From positions 1-32,041 of the forward strand of contig DYOK01000006.1 of the NCBI GenBank assembly GCA_020720565.1: a stretch of DNA of 32,041 nucleotides. The letters run 5' to 3'. Shown here piece by piece: positions 14,890 through 21,881 of this stretch. The notes under the pieces were generated by a model. It had not been told where the DNA came from. It ran no database searches and was given only the letters and a program-made list of their open reading frames with translations. Made by a program: the position numbers and the translations under genes. This stretch comes from Acetofilamentum sp. (GTDB taxonomy: Bacteria > Bacteroidota > Bacteroidia > Bacteroidales > JAFGXI01). Position 1 is the stretch's first letter. Every line of letters starts with the position of its first letter.

Positions 14890-15222
14890 ATGTCGGAACG
14901 TCAAAACTTTGAATCGCAAATTCGAAAAGGAATTTTGGAATATTGCATCCTCAGCGTTCTTGGGAACGAGAGGGCTTATGCATCAGATATCATAAAAAAA
15001 TTGAAAGAAGCTAAACTGATAGTGGTCGAAGGAACGCTTTATCCACTTCTTACCCGCATGAAAAATGCCGAACTTTTAACCTACGAATGGGAAGAAAGCA
15101 ACTCAGGGCCACCGCGTAAATATTATTTTTTGACTGCTAAAGGCGGCGAATTTCAAAAAGAATTACACCAATATTGGCAAGAATTAGTAGAATCGGTTGC
15201 ATTAATCACTCAAAAACAATAA
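14890..15222 (+). CDS. PadR family transcriptional regulator
   Basis: SQIRKGILEYCIL, EGTLYPLLTRM, WEESNSGPPRKYY. Confidence 0.95.
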   Translation: MSERQNFESQIRKGILEYCILSVLGNERAYASDIIKKLKEAKLIVVEGTLYPLLTRMKNAELLTYEWEESNSGPPRKYYFLTAKGGEFQKELHQYWQELVESVALITQKQ

Positions 15223-15227
15223 TCACC

Positions 15228-16727
15228 ATGAATAAAACTTTTAACGTCAACATAGCAGGCCAAGTGTTTCATATTAACGACGACGCCTATCAAAATTTGG
15301 AACAGTATTTAGACAATATTAAGCGGCATTTCGAAACAGAAACTGGAGGGCAAGAGATTGTAGCCGACATTGAAAGCCGTATGGCCGAAATATTTACAGA
15401 ACGTTTTGCAGGACGACGCTCAATAATTGAATTTGCCGATGTCGAAGCCGCAGTTGTAATATTGGGAAAGGTAAACGACATGGAATCTAACGGGGTCGAA
15501 GAAAATGGCAATCCTACGTCAAACGAAACTCAAGATACAGAAGAAAAGAAATTGTTTCGCGACATCGACGATAAATATTTTGGAGGCGTGTCGACTGGCT
15601 TGTCGCATTATTTTGGTTTAGACGCCAACATTATCAGAATTATATTTGTGATTTTGGCATTTAGCACCGCTGGGATTTTAATTTACTTAATTTTATGGGC
15701 TGCCATACCAGGTGCAAAAACGAATCTCGAAAAAATGCAAATGAAAGGCGAACCCATTACCTTATCGAACTTAGAAAAGAACATCACTAAACAAATAAAC
15801 GAGGTTGCTGATGGATTTAAAAAGAAAAATATTGGGATAACGATTAGCTCTCTTATATCAAGAATTATCAAAGGAATTGTAACAATATTAAATGGGATCT
15901 GGAAAATTGTCAGTAAGATATTTGGAATATTCTCTATATTAATAGGTATTATATTGCTTGCTATCATGGTTAATATTTGGTTTTTCGATGCTCAAGCCAT
16001 GGTACACATTAACGACAGCGAATTGGAATTTGTTGCGATTAAGCCTTTTGTAACACATTTTTTCCAACCCAATTCGAGTACCTTATTTATATTGACTACT
16101 TTGGGATTGGCCTTGATACCTATTATCAGCATGTTGTCGGTGGGGGTCAAAATTCTTTTGAATATCAAAAAATCGTTTAAAGCATTTTATCTAAGTCTAG
16201 GAATGGCTTGGTTTTTCTTAGCCATCATGTTGGCTTTTTACATGATACCATTTGCCAAGGAGTTTAAACACGAACGTGTCGTGACACAAGTTATCCACGA
16301 TTCACTAGAGCACTCTAAAATTTATGTACAGTTTAACGATAATAAGGCAAATCTAACGAACCCTCATTGGATATTATCGCTGTCGGATGACGCTTTGTAT
16401 ATGAATGAAAGTTCGACATGGATGCATCCGGAGATGGAAATTTTGGAAAGTGAAGACAGTTTATGGCATTTCGAATTGGTAAACGAATCGAAAGGAAGGT
16501 CGGTAAAAGATGCATTAAAACGTGCCGAATCTATTCAAAACTCAATGGTTTTTCGGTCGGATACCTTGTTTGTTAACGAATTTACAGTATTCCCTAATCC
16601 TTACCGTGGGCAAATGAGTCGATTAAAGATATATAAGCCATTTTCATCTGAAATTCAGAGCAATAGGCCAGAGCTGATTATTGAAGCACTTGAAGATTGT
16701 AACAATGATGTCGAAATGGATTTCTAA
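15228..16727 (+). CDS. PspC domain-containing membrane protein (499 aa)
   Basis: Start MNKTFNVNIAGQVFHINDDAY 5 nt after the padR stop; PspC motif LFRDIDDKYFGGVSTGLSHYFGLD; several TM helices; typical padR-pspC pair. Confidence 0.9.
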   Translation: MNKTFNVNIAGQVFHINDDAYQNLEQYLDNIKRHFETETGGQEIVADIESRMAEIFTERFAGRRSIIEFADVEAAVVILGKVNDMESNGVEENGNPTSNETQDTEEKKLFRDIDDKYFGGVSTGLSHYFGLDANIIRIIFVILAFSTAGILIYLILWAAIPGAKTNLEKMQMKGEPITLSNLEKNITKQINEVADGFKKKNIGITISSLISRIIKGIVTILNGIWKIVSKIFGIFSILIGIILLAIMVNIWFFDAQAMVHINDSELEFVAIKPFVTHFFQPNSSTLFILTTLGLALIPIISMLSVGVKILLNIKKSFKAFYLSLGMAWFFLAIMLAFYMIPFAKEFKHERVVTQVIHDSLEHSKIYVQFNDNKANLTNPHWILSLSDDALYMNESSTWMHPEMEILESEDSLWHFELVNESKGRSVKDALKRAESIQNSMVFRSDTLFVNEFTVFPNPYRGQMSRLKIYKPFSSEIQSNRPELIIEALEDCNNDVEMDF

Positions 16728-16923: not shown

Positions 16924-18711
16924 ATGAAGCACATTAGAAATTTTTGTATTATAGCCCACATCGACCATGGCAAAAGCACTTTAGCCGACAGGCTTTTGGA
17001 ATATACAGGCACTGTTACCGGACGCGATGCCCAAGAACAAGTTCTCGACAACATGGATTTAGAGCGTGAACGAGGCATTACCATTAAGAGCCACGCCATA
17101 CAAATGGATTATAAATACAATAACGAAAAATATGTTCTTAATCTAATCGATACCCCTGGACACGTCGATTTTTCGTACGAGGTATCACGTTCTATTGCGG
17201 CATGCGAGGGCGCTTTATTGATTGTGGATGCTACTCAAGGTATTCAAGCACAGACCATTTCTAATTTATATCTGGCCATCGAAAACGATTTGGAGATTAT
17301 TCCAGTTATGAACAAAATGGATCTTGACAGTGCCATGCCCGACGAAGTTGAAGAGCAAATAATCGACTTAATCGGATGCAAGCGCGAAGACATTATCAGA
17401 GCTTCTGGCAAAACGGGCATGGGTGTGATGGATATTTTGGCACAAATAGTTGAACGTGTCCCCTCGCCTTCTGGAGACCCCAACGCACCGCTTCAAGCTT
17501 TGGTTTTCGATTCGGTTTTCAACTCGTTCCGCGGCATTATCGCTTATTTTAAAATCACCAATGGCGAAATTCGCAAAAATGATTTGGTTAAATTTTTCAA
17601 TACCAAAAAAGAGTACAATGCAGACGAGGTTGGAATTTTACGTTTAAAACCAGAACCCCGCGATGTAGTCAAAACAGGCGATGTAGGTTATATTATTTCG
17701 GGTATCAAAACCTCGAAAGAAGTTAAAGTTGGCGATACCATTACCCACCCCCACCGCTCTTGCGACAAAGCTATTGATGGTTTCGAAGATGTAAAGCCAA
17801 TGGTATTTGCAGGGGTTTACCCGATTGACGCCGAAGATTATGAAGACCTGCGTGCTTCGCTCGAAAAACTACAATTAAACGACGCCTCTTTAACATTCGA
17901 GCCCGAATCGTCGGCCGCATTGGGTTTTGGATTCCGTTGCGGTTTTTTAGGTCTTTTGCACATGGAGATAATTCAGGAGCGTCTCGACAGAGAATTCGAA
18001 ATGAATGTAATTACAACAGTTCCCAACGTGTCGTATTTGGTTTACACCAAAAAAGGCGAAGTTACGGAAGTTCATAATCCTTCGAGCTTACCCGATTTAA
18101 ACTTGCTCGAGAAAATTGAAGAGCCATTTATTAAAGCCCAGATTATCACCAAATCGGACTATTTGGGAAATATTATGACACTTTGTTTATCGAAAAGGGG
18201 GATATTGAATAACCAAACATTTATAACGGGTAATCGTGTCGATTTAAGTTTTGATATGCCATTAGGCGAAATTGTGATCGACTTTTACGATAAACTCAAA
18301 AGCATTTCGAAAGGGTATGCTTCGTTCGACTATTACAGAATTGGATACCGACCAGCTAACCTGGTCAAATTAGATATTTTACTCAACGGCGATGGCGTCG
18401 ATGCTCTTTCTGCCTTAATCCACCAGGACAATGCTCAAAACTTTGGCCGAAGAATTTGCGAAAAACTAAAAGATTTAATTCCTAGGCAACAATTCGACAT
18501 TGCCATACAAGCGGCCATTGGCGTCAAAGTGATTGCTCGCGAAACCATTAAAGCCGTTCGTAAAGACGTTACCGCAAAATGTTATGGTGGCGACATTACT
18601 CGTAAGCGCAAACTACTCGAAAAACAGAAAAAAGGTAAAAAACGAATGAAACAAATTGGTAATGTCGAAGTGCCACAAAATGCCTTTTTAGCGGTATTAA
18701 AACTAGATTAA
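16924..18711 (+). CDS. lepA: Translation elongation factor 4 (LepA)
   Basis: [40 protein letters not shown]. Confidence 0.99.
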
Positions 18712-18788
18712 GGTTTTTAAATTTGACTTCTATACATACCTTAAATCATGGTATAGATTTTTGAAATTGCAGTTAACTTGTCAAAAAT

Positions 18789-18928
18789 ATATCGTTGATT
18801 TCGACGATAATCTGAAATATCGTTAATTTCGACGATAATCCGAAATATCGTTAATTTCGACGATAATCTGAAATATCGTTGATTTCGACGATATTTTGAA
18901 ATATCGATAATTTAAACGATATTTGTTG
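18789..18928. repeat. Tandem array of five 28-bp palindromic units directly upstream of the satD start
   Basis: Units start at 18789, 18817, 18845, 18873 and 18901; consensus ATATCGTTRATTTCGACGATAATCYGAA with internal palindrome TATCGT-N8-ACGATA; unit 5 is degenerate. Confidence 0.95.
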
Positions 18929-18929
18929 C

Positions 18930-19574
18930 ATGATAGCAGTTATTACAGGCGATATAATCGCGTCGAGGCATTTGGTGAACCAAGAAATATGGTTAGCACC
19001 ACTTAAAACGCTATTATCTACATGGGGTGAAAGACCCAAAACATGGAATCTGGATCGTGGTGATTTCTTTCAAATTGAGATTTCTAATCCAGAAGATGCT
19101 CTTATAAAAGCGTTTGAAATAAAGTCGTTAATCAAAAAAGCAACTCCACTCAATAACCACAAGAAAATAAGCACTATAGATGTTCGAATGGCTATTGGAA
19201 TAGGCGATAAAACATATTCTGGCGAAACCATATCGGAGAGTAACGGCCAAGCGTTCATATATTCTGGCGAAAAGTTTGATGTTTTAAAAAAAGAAGGCAT
19301 AACGATCGGCATTAAAACGCCATGGATAAATTTAGATGAAGAAATCAATTTATACCTAAAATTATCTCAAACTTTTATCGATAGTTGGTCGGTTTCATCA
19401 GCCGAATTAGTTAATCTAATCTTAAAAAACGGAAACACAAGCCAAGAAGAAATCGGACAAAAATTAAGTATAAAACAAAATTCTGTAAGCGGCCGATGGA
19501 ATAGATCTCATGCTGAAGAATTATTGGAGGTTGAAAAGATGTTTCGAAAAAAAGTAATGACGATACTCAAGTGA
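18930..19574 (+). CDS. satD: SatD family protein (nucleotide-cyclase-like N-terminus, C-terminal HTH)
   Basis: VITGDIIASR, RGDFFQ, VRMAIGIG and SNGQAF motifs; HTH-like SQEEIGQKLSIKQNSVSGRWNR. Confidence 0.85.
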   Translation: MIAVITGDIIASRHLVNQEIWLAPLKTLLSTWGERPKTWNLDRGDFFQIEISNPEDALIKAFEIKSLIKKATPLNNHKKISTIDVRMAIGIGDKTYSGETISESNGQAFIYSGEKFDVLKKEGITIGIKTPWINLDEEINLYLKLSQTFIDSWSVSSAELVNLILKNGNTSQEEIGQKLSIKQNSVSGRWNRSHAEELLEVEKMFRKKVMTILK

Positions 19575-20296
19575 TAATACTCATCAAACTAATATTAGCA
19601 CATTTAATTGGAGATTTTCTTCTACAGCCAAAATCTTGGGTAGAGGACAAAGAAAGAGCCAAAATCAAATCAAACAAATTATACCTGCACACATTAATCC
19701 ATGGGCTATTAATCTTAATATTATTATGGAGTTTTAACAATTGGCTTTTAATGATATCTATAATGCTTAGCCACTATTTTATAGATCTTATAAAAGTATA
19801 TGCCCAAACTAAAAAAAATAATGCAAAATGGTTTTTGATCGATCAAATATTGCATTTTATTAGTATTTTAATTCTTTGTAAATTATTATTAAAGTGTGAT
19901 TTGCAATTGATTACGTTATTTCAAGATGTTACTATATGGATATATTTAGTGGCATTACTATTAATTACCAATGTTTCAAGGATACTTATACAAACCGTCT
20001 TACAAAATTGGGCAAAAGCATTAGAAACAAATAATAACGAAGCCTTAAACGATGCTGGTAAATATATAGGAATATTAGAACGCTTATTTGTCTTCATTTT
20101 TGTAATTACTAACAATTGGGAAGGAATTGGATTTTTATTGGCTGCAAAGTCGGTCTTCCGCTTTGGCGATTTAAAAGAATCAAAAGACCGAAAATTGACA
20201 GAATATGTACTTATTGGGACATTATTAAGTTTTGGACTGGCAATTCTAACGGGCTTAGCAGTGTTAAAATTAATTACAATAGTTAATGCTTTGTAA
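19571..20296 (+). CDS. DUF3307 family multi-pass membrane protein (SatE-like)
   Basis: AHLIGDFLLQ, HTLIH, HYFID, DQILH, GKYIGILER, AKSVFRF, EYVLIGTLLS; GTG start overlaps the satD TGA (GTGA). Confidence 0.85.
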   Translation: MIILIKLILAHLIGDFLLQPKSWVEDKERAKIKSNKLYLHTLIHGLLILILLWSFNNWLLMISIMLSHYFIDLIKVYAQTKKNNAKWFLIDQILHFISILILCKLLLKCDLQLITLFQDVTIWIYLVALLLITNVSRILIQTVLQNWAKALETNNNEALNDAGKYIGILERLFVFIFVITNNWEGIGFLLAAKSVFRFGDLKESKDRKLTEYVLIGTLLSFGLAILTGLAVLKLITIVNAL

Positions 20297-20490
20297 ACAA
20301 TTTCCAAACAACAGAGATCTTTTTAACAAACGTTTAAATGAAATGAAACGAGAGATAAAATGAATATTTATGAACTAAAAACTTGAAACATTCAACGTAT
20401 AACAAATTAACAATAAAACCATTTAAGACATAAGAATCATTAGGAACTTCTGAATTAACACTTAGAACTTTCAACAAATAAACAACTCAA

Positions 20491-20520
20491 TCTACCTAAG
20501 GTAGACGGGCAACTCAACAA
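20491..20520. repeat. REP-like GTAG hairpin element, second copy at 30597-30626
   Basis: TCTACCTAAGGTAGACGGGCAACTCAACAA vs TCGACCGAAGGTAGACCAGCAAATCAACAA, 25/30 identical. Confidence 0.6.
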
Positions 20521-20551
20521 TCGTCAATCAAAAATCGTAAATTACAAACAG

Positions 20552-21127
20552 ATGAGACTTGTACTGGCATCAAATAACGCACACAAACTGGAGGAAATAC
20601 GTTCTGCCGTAGGTTCGAAACACGAGATTTTAAGTTTAAGCGACATTGGTTTTGTTGGCGAAATACCTGAGACCCACGACACATTGCAAGGCAATGCTTT
20701 CGAAAAAGCCGAATATATTTATAGCCGATTTGGATTAAACTGCTTTGCAGACGATACTGGTCTCGAAATAGAAGTATTGAATGGCGAGCCTGGAGTCTAC
20801 TCGGCACGTTATGCAGGAGAAAAACCAAGTTTCGACGACAACATGAACAAAGTGTTGCTAAAAATGGAAGGCAAAAGTAACCGTAAAGCTGTTTTCCGTA
20901 CTATAATTTCGTGTATTATCGAAGGAAGAGAATATACTTTTGAAGGCAAGTGCCCAGGTCAAATTGTAACCAGTAAGCAAGGTGAAGTAGGTTTTGGTTA
21001 CGATCCTATTTTTCGACCCGATGGATTTGAACAAACCTTTGCTCAAATGTCGATTGAAGTTAAAAATAAAATTTCGCACAGAGGCTTAGCTATGGTGCAA
21101 CTGATTCAATTTTTAAATTCGATTTAA
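20552..21127 (+). CDS. rdgB: Non-canonical purine NTP pyrophosphatase (RdgB/HAM1)
   Basis: ASNNAHKLEE, ADDTGL, PGVYSARYA, GFGYDPIF, KISHRG. Confidence 0.97.
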   Translation: MRLVLASNNAHKLEEIRSAVGSKHEILSLSDIGFVGEIPETHDTLQGNAFEKAEYIYSRFGLNCFADDTGLEIEVLNGEPGVYSARYAGEKPSFDDNMNKVLLKMEGKSNRKAVFRTIISCIIEGREYTFEGKCPGQIVTSKQGEVGFGYDPIFRPDGFEQTFAQMSIEVKNKISHRGLAMVQLIQFLNSI

Positions 21128-21184: not shown

Positions 21185-21475
21185 ATGAATCAAATTCAAT
21201 TAAACGATAGAATAATACCTCGCCAAGATATGATCGAAAGCAAGATTGATGGCGATTTAGTGATGATGAATCTCGAATTAGAACATTATTTTGGTTTAAA
21301 TTCTGTCGGGACAGCTATTTGGGACATGTTGCCTAAACAACCCACTTTTAACAGTTTGATAGAACAATTGATGCTCAAGTTTGAAATTGACCACGATACT
21401 TGTGTGAAAGAAACATCGGATTTTATAACGCTTCTCGAAACTCAAAAGTTAATAAGCATTGAAAAAGCGCATTAA
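21185..21475 (+). CDS. PqqD-family RiPP recognition element (lasso peptide B1-like)
   Basis: IDGDLVMMNLELEHYFGLNSVGTAIWDML and LMLKFEIDHDTC pattern; 96 aa; adjacent to B2. Confidence 0.88.
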   Translation: MNQIQLNDRIIPRQDMIESKIDGDLVMMNLELEHYFGLNSVGTAIWDMLPKQPTFNSLIEQLMLKFEIDHDTCVKETSDFITLLETQKLISIEKAH

Positions 21476-21881
21476 ATGGAGCCGTTTTTCAAAATGGTCG
21501 AGCATAGAGTACCGATACTGGTTAAAAGGTCTTGGCTTAAGCATATGGTATCTCATAGCTATCAAAATTTTAAGTTTTAAAACCATTGCCCAAAACAAAA
21601 AAAACAGTTCGATAGTTACAAACAGCATCTCTACAGAATTACTCATCAAAACCCTTGGGCGAGTAGAACGAACAGCTCCTTGGCCAGTTACCTGCTTAAG
21701 TATTGCCCTTGTGGCACGCAATTTATTTCGTTCTCAAGGATTAGATTTGACCATACATTTAGGAGTTTCGAAACAAAAAACCGACACTTTAGCAGCACAT
21801 GCTTGGACCATTTCGAACGAACACATTATTACAGGAGGAGGTAATTTGCAAAACTACACAGAACTGTTTACCTTTGAATAA
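21459..21881 (+). CDS. Lasso peptide biosynthesis B2-like leader peptidase (transglutaminase-like)
   Basis: Catalytic Cys in PWPVTCLSIAL, IHLGV, and catalytic His in LAAHAW; TTG start overlaps the end of B1. Confidence 0.85.
   Translation: MKKRIKWSRFSKWSSIEYRYWLKGLGLSIWYLIAIKILSFKTIAQNKKNSSIVTNSISTELLIKTLGRVERTAPWPVTCLSIALVARNLFRSQGLDLTIHLGVSKQKTDTLAAHAWTISNEHIITGGGNLQNYTELFTFE

Follow-up and report, generated by a model that had tools for sequence, protein, structure and literature searches.

A two-gene cassette encoding a SatD-like regulator and a DUF3307 membrane protein lies between the housekeeping genes lepA and rdgB of Acetofilamentum sp. (assembly GCA_020720565.1, contig DYOK01000006.1); the whole stretch analyzed, positions 1 to 32,041 of this contig, is referred to here as the window. 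Directly upstream of satD lies an array of palindromic units, and among the orthologous loci the core of these palindromes goes with three residues of the SatD recognition helix. Because the operator core tracks these residues, SatD very probably binds the upstream array and represses its own promoter, as judged from sequence comparison. The cassette as a whole is probably a self-contained switch, in which SatD would repress its own promoter via the array and would thereby hold down the membrane protein to which it is coupled.

The satD-like gene (18930-19574, + strand) encodes 214 amino acids from an ATG start, and the DUF3307 gene (19571-20296, + strand) encodes 241 amino acids from a GTG start; the two open reading frames overlap by 4 nucleotides (nt) in GTGA, and this overlap is preserved in most loci. 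Together with the array and with 77 nt of non-coding DNA on the left and 255 nt on the right, the genes make up a 1.84-kb segment (18712-20551, + strand). The GC content is 0.27-0.35 over 18600-20600, as against 0.40-0.445 in lepA (16924-18711) and 0.37-0.41 in the Ham1/rdgB gene (20552-21127), which flank the unit. A first-pass annotation of this DNA had described an AT-rich unit between the housekeeping genes lepA and rdgB, two genes coupled by a GTGA overlap, five 28-bp palindromic units directly 5′ of satD, a SatD protein with the motifs TGDII, RGDFF and RMAIGIG and a C-terminal helix-turn-helix (HTH), and a partner with the motifs HLIGD, HTLIH, HYFID and DQILH; each of these descriptions is borne out by the coordinates, translations and profile matches given above and below.

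Operator array, predicted promoter and recognition helix

The operator array (18789-18921) consists of five 28-bp units, each of which contains the palindrome TATCGt-N8-ACGATA. Tandem Repeats Finder reports a single array over this interval with a period of 28, 4.8 copies, 90% matches and a score of 210. The palindrome TATCGnnnATTTnnACGATA is matched five times without mismatch, at 18790, 18818, 18846, 18874 and 18902, compared with no match in 100 dinucleotide-preserving shuffles of the window. When shifted by 14 bp, the array is again palindromic (ACGATA-N8-TATCGT), resulting in a lattice of ten half-sites, one every 14 bp, that alternate in orientation. Nowhere else in the 2.85-Mb genome is there such an array, and six isolated single matches to a relaxed pattern are all that occurs outside it; since the genome contains no second array and just these scattered single sites, the cassette appears to be the sole target of SatD.

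A predicted Bacteroidota sigma-A promoter (18895-18925, + strand) surrounds the last of these units. It comprises TTTG (18895-18898) as the putative -33 element, a 19-nt spacer and the -7-like box GATATTTG (18918-18925); TTTG and the box thus bracket operator unit 5 (18902-18921), and the ATG lies 5 nt past the box. The box carries G in place of the consensus first T, the Flavobacterium -7 box TAnnTTTG being reported to span -12 to -5 (PMC9723704). From this layout, transcription is predicted to start at 18930, i.e., at the A of the ATG, which would yield a leaderless mRNA; a box lying further 5′, and hence a leader, is found in 18 of 51 loci. A sigma-70 consensus scan was uninformative (10 sites vs. 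10.8 expected), and an Rfam search of 18600-20700 returned just chance-level matches to eukaryotic microRNAs and small nucleolar RNAs, far under the gathering scores. A reading of the palindromes as RNA hairpins was rejected because the arrays either contain the predicted promoter or lie upstream of it.

Nearly all orthologues carry one to five units of the same design 5′ of satD, namely the arms TAT-NNN and N′N′N′-ATA on either side of a spacer of about 8 whose centre is T-rich, with a period of 28. The three-base operator core varies between loci and is always changed on both arms. The loci used for the covariation were drawn from species genomes (27), from relatives (2) and from an even sample of the phylum (29), and 50 were classified. 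One locus with units outside the TAT-NNN scheme (L003), one with its upstream DNA missing (L016) and two with one weak unit each (L032 and L060) were dropped from the counts, and L010 and L030 were omitted throughout as near-copies of L009 and L015. The HTH domain of SatD (about residues 147-200, 19368-19529, + strand), whose C-terminal profile finds its best match in the HTH of the antitoxin HipB (E 4.5e-4), contains the recognition helix Q183-N-S-V-S-G-R189 (19476-19496), and it is with the residues x1, x2 and x5 after the conserved Q183 (184, 185 and 188 of the window protein) that the core goes in the 50 loci.

The core CGT is accompanied by N-S at x1-x2 in 13/13 loci, compared with 0/37 of the others, and the core T(A/C)C by R or K at x5 in 8/8 loci, compared with 0/42. 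S at x1 with G/S at x5 is found in all six loci with the core TGC/TGA and in none of the 44 others, and S at x2 with E at x5 in 13 of the 14 loci with the core (C/A)GG and in one of the 36 others. The further single classes AAG, CTG, TAG and ATG each come with a helix of their own. On a tree built without the HTH columns, the CGT, T(A/C)C, TGC/TGA and (C/A)GG traits change 5, 6, 2 and 5 times, respectively, and the combination of T(A/C)C with R/K at x5 is found inside the window clade and in lineages whose SatD is 41-45% identical to the window protein. Helix and operator behave as a matched pair, also if they recombined jointly, which is the best non-experimental evidence that SatD binds the array. 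The first-pass annotation had proposed that SatD binds the array and that upstream arrays covarying with the HTH could be sought among satD orthologues; such arrays were found in the 50 classified loci, with three of the four tables perfect, and the proposed binding is well founded through this covariation.

Several upstream regions depart from the simple layout. Hybrid arrays, with two half-site classes per region, occur in L004, L014 and L015/L030; that of L004 has TATCGT units at -198/-170 and TATTACC units at -116 to -60, of which the promoter-proximal class alone fits the resident helix. Such arrays suggest past recombination between cassettes. At L003, whose distant SatD is 29% identical, three 28-bp upstream units follow another design, AAAATCAACC-N6-GGTTGATTT, and read TCAACC-N-GGTTGA; the array principle therefore reaches beyond the TAT-NNN scheme. 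Upstream of the satD of L019, a telomere-like TTAGGG/TTAGGGG run lies about 90-150 nt 5′ of the gene and separates the hsdS end from the operator array.

Palm domain of SatD and its membrane partner

The window protein itself remains under the cut-off of the Pfam family SatD (PF16264; 17.4 bits vs. 29, E 0.0037, residues 2-193), and a six-frame search of the genome with PF16264 gave no match at E <= 0.001. Among 109 aligned relatives, which are 31-62% identical to the window protein, 89 match PF16264 at E <= 0.01 (best 6.6e-14), and precomputed PF16264 matches exist for roughly half of the close homologues. Because these 89 relatives match the family, the window protein is placed in it, in a divergent Bacteroidota branch, and is tied in through its homologues.

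The AlphaFold model of SatD (mean predicted local distance difference test, pLDDT, 96.3; predicted template-modelling score, pTM, 0.93) shows a beta-alpha-beta-beta-alpha-beta palm in residues 1-132 (18930-19325), to which D8 and D45 belong, and a helical part in residues 133-213. A Foldseek search with this model listed GGDEF domains first (E 4.4e-4), followed by class III cyclases and Cas10, and the matches include a uridylate cyclase. Pairwise comparison by VIA-align gave Z 10.0 for the GGDEF domain of DosC (4zvg_B; 126 aligned, root-mean-square deviation (rmsd) 3.0), Z 9.7 for GTP cyclohydrolase III (109 aligned), Z 9.5 for the adenylyl cyclase Rv1625c (141 aligned, rmsd 3.5) and Z 9.2 for Cas10 (134 aligned), with several further class III cyclases at Z 8.5-9.1. 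These top scores are ties, and the models settle the palm superfamily fold for SatD, as the first-pass annotation had suspected, but not the subfamily.

The SatD motifs are T6-G-D8-I-I, R43-G-D45-F-F and R86-M-A-I-G-I-G92. Their residues D8, G44, D45, R86, G90 and G92 are invariant in 38 SatD sequences, and D8 and D45 are at least 90% conserved in the 109 relatives. In an hhalign comparison with six true cyclases from related genomes, D8 falls on the Asp of FSDIxGFT and D45 on that of KTIGD, and HMMER aligns the SatD segments ..GD-F.. and ..VR-aIGIG.. with GD and VRIGIHMG of the cyclase Ma1120 (E 0.05-0.2).

This register of the metal aspartates, along with the palm fold, the invariant R86, the fold matches to uridylate cyclase and Cas10 and the strict pairing with a membrane protein, would suit a signalling pair of the Pycsar or CBASS kind, in which a (cyclic) nucleotide synthesized by the SatD palm switches on DUF3307, the role of the HTH being limited to setting expression. 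However, class III cyclases have their substrate-specifying lysine four positions ahead of the second Asp, where SatD has L41 (consensus I) or a gap. The Asn/Arg (VNxAxR) helix of the cyclases lies beyond the hhalign alignment, which ends at residue 91 and is a weak match (probability 12%), and neither the 38- nor the 109-sequence alignment has an invariant Asn or Arg after residue 92. The catalytic Glu at the fourth position of GGDEF is F46 in SatD, where the hairpin reads R-G-D-F-F (family consensus RGDSFQ), given that the two hairpins appear equivalent in the models. SatD matches none of PF00211 (Guanylate_cyc), GGDEF and mCpol at E <= 1 in Pfam, neither Pfam nor the ESM Atlas gives a recognisable nucleotide-binding domain in DUF3307, and a true PF00211 class III cyclase gene is already present elsewhere in the same genome (E 1.1e-55). 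Since the cyclase lysine and the GGDEF glutamate are missing, a synthase role is less likely than a sensor role for a palm that may still hold metal and phosphate, and we consider a signalling pair of this kind very unlikely. The first-pass annotation had SatD making or sensing a nucleotide signal; the palm fold and both metal-Asp motifs uphold its premise, whereas the synthase half finds no support in the catalytic residues.

The partner of SatD is an all-helical polytopic membrane protein. Its residues 3-118 match Pfam DUF3307 (PF11750; 108.3 bits vs. cut-off 23, E 3.6e-31), and no Pfam family covers its C-terminal half (119-241). The model of the protein (pLDDT 83, pTM 0.57) has eight helices. 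The four N-terminal transmembrane helices form a bundle (residues 1-118), each with a polar pair one helical turn apart, and the motifs present are H11-LIG-D15, H40-TLI-H44, H68-YFI-D72 and D91-QIL-H95. An alignment of 44 sequences shows H11, D15, Q19, H40, H44, H68, D91, Q92 and H95 to be invariant and D72 to be at least 90% conserved, and a metal site in the four-helix bundle is a reasonable guess from this pattern. The membrane metallo-enzyme put forward in the first-pass annotation would rest on these invariant His/Asp residues. The C-terminal half contains the near-invariant stretch AAKSVFRFGDLKESKDRKLTEY, which by our own reading of the positive-inside count would be cytoplasmic. No solved structural relative was found by Foldseek, whose best PDB match has E 0.44, and the best of 48,161 chains compared by VIA-align (Z 8.3, a TetR C-domain, 93 residues) is within helical-bundle noise. 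In the ESM Atlas, the whole protein scores 0.79 and the C-terminal half 0.86, against clusters that are without exception unnamed.

The SatD-DUF3307 pairing is obligate. DUF3307 lies directly 3′ of satD in 29/29 loci of the phylum sample (L031-L060) and in most of L002-L029, and a DUF3307 match is present in 62 of the 64 genomes with a near-full-length SatD match; three genomes have DUF3307 without a detectable SatD. Fused (Rosetta-stone) forms of the two proteins were not found, a lone 760-amino-acid protein that covers 52% of SatD being probably a mis-call. DUF3307 is broken and SatD intact in L017 and L019, the reverse holds in L027 (a long-read metagenome-assembled genome, MAG), and both genes are eroded in L028 and L030, a decay pattern that would be weakly in line with SatD restraining DUF3307.

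Mobility, neighbourhoods and the proposed switch

Both congeners (two genomes of the same genus) lack the cassette, and 10-25 nt separate their lepA stop from their rdgB start. Because lepA and rdgB nearly abut in these genomes, 18712-20551 is taken as an insert, and the 1.84-kb cassette appears to be a recent insertion in the Acetofilamentum sp. genome. SatD is present in 3/41 relatives, in 0/7 other genomes of the same family and in neither of the 2 congeners, and a SatD match was found in 70 of 301 sampled Bacteroidota genomes, representing 38 of 144 genera; the pair accounts for 1045 representative clusters at 50% identity. Proteins 55-75% identical to those of the window occur in Bacteroidales, Chitinophagales, Flavobacteriales, Cytophagales, Sphingobacteriales and Chlorobiota bins. 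Such identity across several orders, despite the patchy occurrence, argues for horizontal spread of the window clade and points to horizontal acquisition of the cassette. Phage carriage was not detected, neither protein being found in 50,697 phage records, and SatD occurs in 3 of 72,556 plasmids at 25-27% identity. The window genes near the cassette include no integrase or transposase, no shared flank DNA was found at the cassette ends among 120 loci, and the flanks are not repeated within the window. A 67% identical cassette with a four-unit TATCGT array and a frameshifted DUF3307 lies on a 4-kb contig binned as Alphaproteobacteria (L017), so that either the contig is misbinned or the cassette has been transferred beyond the phylum.

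Type I restriction genes immediately adjoin 7 of 26 window-clade loci (L004, L007, L009, L011, L013, L014 and L019); at least three HsdR types are represented, and the cassette stands in one of three places, namely between hsdS and hsdR, downstream of hsdR or upstream of hsdM. In contrast, tblastn with eight Hsd/RhuM queries over all 53 loci of the phylum sample found such genes within 7 kb in 2/53, and a Pfam scan of the neighbours (80/182 neighbour proteins, 20/46 loci of this sample) found them within two genes in 1/20 loci, the neighbours being housekeeping genes conserved within lineages. PADLOC-DB 2.0 has no family for DUF3307 and gives just a chance-level SAVED match for SatD (E 0.023, 12.9 bits), and no defence gene is present among the window genes (32 kb), all of which are housekeeping genes. 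The enrichment in defence islands raised by the first-pass annotation is thus limited to a restriction tie in the close clade. The SatD/DUF3307 family at large looks like a resident regulatory pair, and the window clade like a mobile branch often lodged in restriction operons. Within one such type I operon, on a Pedobacter MAG contig (L019, 5025-5900), an insert of about 875 nt interrupts DUF3307 near residue 125; the insert holds a toxin-antitoxin pair, i.e., a Gp49/HigB-like gene and an HTH_3 gene, and the upstream satD is intact.

At two restriction loci, the hsdR start codon lies 14 nt inside the DUF3307 end (L007, 5345; L011, 1404), and because of this overlap hsdR would be read there from the SatD-controlled transcript; at L004, hsdR starts 30 nt after DUF3307. 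One may ask, from these junctions and from the lack of a + strand terminator-like site between DUF3307 and rdgB in the window, whether the promoter and operators of the cassette mainly regulate downstream genes (hsdR there, rdgB here), like the C-proteins of restriction systems. However, the downstream genes are unrelated in most loci and in some lie on the opposite strand, a 255-nt gap separates DUF3307 from rdgB, and rdgB is expressed in the congeners, which lack the cassette. Such control would also leave the obligate membrane partner unexplained, and we regard control of neighbours as the chief function of the cassette as highly improbable.

A further reading is an addiction or abortive-infection role, in which SatD, as a repressor-antitoxin, would sense a phage-caused change in nucleotides or its own loss, whereupon a burst of DUF3307 would damage the membrane and stop the infected cell. 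The patchy occurrence, the recent insertion in this genome and the 55-75% identity across several orders would fit such a role, as would the seven close-clade loci in or beside type I restriction operons, with L019 further invaded by the HigB-like pair. The SatD HTH profile is nearest to an antitoxin, HipB, and operator specificity has diversified, as in systems that avoid cross-talk. In addition, satD is reported to be the sole accessory gene scored essential in transposon screens of three Streptococcus pyogenes strains and to be carried by 178/249 S. pyogenes genomes (PMC11323703); this essential yet accessory pattern is, by analogy, that expected of a repressor or antitoxin restraining a harmful neighbour. 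Against this role stand the blank PADLOC result for DUF3307 and the chance-level one for SatD, the window without defence genes and the housekeeping neighbours in the phylum sample. The cassette is, moreover, absent from the phage records and nearly so from the plasmids, and DUF3307 has invariant, enzyme-like residues, whereas small membrane toxins are typically loose in sequence. On balance, addiction or abortive infection is a tentative and unlikely explanation.

We return to the switch in which SatD represses its own promoter. Its C-terminal HTH would bind the five palindromes directly 5′ of its own start codon, and SatD bound on unit 5, between the -33 and -7 elements, would occlude RNA polymerase, which would keep both SatD and the translationally coupled membrane protein low. 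The four upstream units would add cooperativity, and the alternation of half-sites every 14 bp suggests that SatD dimers may polymerise along the array. The palm domain would act as a ligand-sensing and dimerising module, for which a nucleotide is the obvious candidate ligand, and would relieve repression on a signal. The output would be DUF3307, whose action is the most speculative step; probably it serves as a metal-dependent enzyme of the membrane or as an ion path, and would be harmful in excess. The essentiality of the accessory satD in S. pyogenes would be in keeping with a repressor that restrains such a neighbour.

Several observations weigh against this scheme. First, the independent contrasts on well-supported branches number 1-2, with which a sign test cannot reach significance, and inheritance or the joint recombination of helix and operator could yield part of the covariation. 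Second, half-sites 14 bp apart sit on different faces of the DNA helix, which is unusual for a simple HTH dimer. Third, a -7 box ending at -5, as the leaderless layout has it, is found in 10 of 51 loci, and the exact box is absent within 60 nt in 23 of 51. Fourth, the sequence link between SatD and the cyclases is weak (hhalign probability 12%, E 0.0024; HMMER E 0.05-0.2), and the S. pyogenes satD is a distant relative.

A far-reaching extension would make the cassette a new class of addiction or abortive-infection system, in which a cyclase-fold repressor polymerised on a 14-bp lattice silences a lethal membrane metallo-enzyme until the filament comes apart on a nucleotide signal or when the cassette is lost. 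Diversifying helix/operator pairs would insulate co-resident copies, and the clade would spread as a promoter-bearing two-gene cassette into intergenic gaps, often within type I restriction operons; we judge this extension distinctly unlikely.

The remainder of the 32-kb window is core genome, with rpoC, rpoB, four ribosomal protein genes, nusG, tuf, a PspC-domain gene and lepA on one side. On the 3′ side of the cassette lie rdgB, a PqqD/transglutaminase-like pair, a SPOUT methyltransferase, a histidine kinase and a MacB-type ATP-binding cassette exporter. The PspC-domain gene (15174-16727), directly 5′ of lepA, encodes a 517-amino-acid membrane protein of a stress-response family. The PqqD-family gene (96 amino acids) overlaps the transglutaminase-like gene (Transglut_core3, 140 amino acids) at 21185-21881, and it adjoins rdgB in both congeners too. 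Pairing of PqqD with a transglutaminase-like protein is the pattern of the B1/B2 maturation proteins of lasso peptides; no lasso-peptide cyclase or precursor gene was identified beside the pair at 21185-21881.

Comparison with known systems

The pair is common in Bacteroidota and reaches the streptococci, yet it is all but absent from the literature. In the papers searched, no account of a SatD/DUF3307 mechanism was found, DUF3307 is named in one paper, and SatD is either just a label or an essential accessory gene left without explanation. What is new here is the table of residue-to-base covariation, the placing of a predicted promoter within unit 5, the comparison of SatD with true cyclases from related genomes at their catalytic residues and the link to the essential-accessory phenotype. 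Three predictions are open to direct test, i.e., a three-residue code between helix positions 184, 185 and 188 and the operator core, a promoter embedded in the last operator, and a repressor that protects the cell from its own membrane partner. If true, a protective repressor would explain the S. pyogenes result and would add a palm-domain sensor to the one-component regulators.

One of the closest known systems is the SatD/SatE pair, named after the sat operon of Streptococcus mutans, which combines the same two families (PF16264 and PF11750) in the same order; SatE is presumably the DUF3307 protein, and the window SatD differs in that it remains under the Pfam cut-off. The designation "acid tolerance" is a label taken from the name of the sat operon. 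According to PMC13492114, the S. mutans locus tags of SatE (SMU.1057) and ylxM (SMU.1061) are four apart.

With the palms of class III cyclases, GGDEF domains and Cas10, SatD shares the fold (Z 9.2-10.0 over 120-140 residues) and metal aspartates in register. However, the SatD domain of about 132 residues is fused to an HTH and lacks the substrate lysine of the class III cyclases, the Glu of GGDEF and a demonstrable Asn/Arg pair. Regulators of the PucR/CdaR family likewise combine a degenerate cyclase-like domain with a C-terminal HTH in a transcription factor, whereas SatD is much shorter and lacks the N-terminal domain of PucR, and no PucR-family Pfam match was found for the window SatD or its aligned relatives.

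The logic of the proposed switch resembles that of TetR/TetA, in which a ligand-binding domain is joined to an HTH, operators overlap the promoter from which the repressor itself is transcribed, a membrane protein is under its control, and loss of the repressor is expected to be deleterious. We note three differences from TetR/TetA. First, the sensor of SatD is a palm rather than a helical bundle. Second, five phased operators are present instead of two. Third, the genes are co-directional and translationally coupled. In the HipB/HipA type II toxin-antitoxin system, HipB is the best sequence match of the SatD HTH (E 4.5e-4), and such modules share with the cassette autorepression via tandem palindromes (predicted for the cassette), overlapping genes and a patchy distribution; in contrast, the SatD regulator is encoded upstream, is larger than a typical antitoxin and bears a palm, and its putative toxin would be a conserved eight-helix membrane protein.

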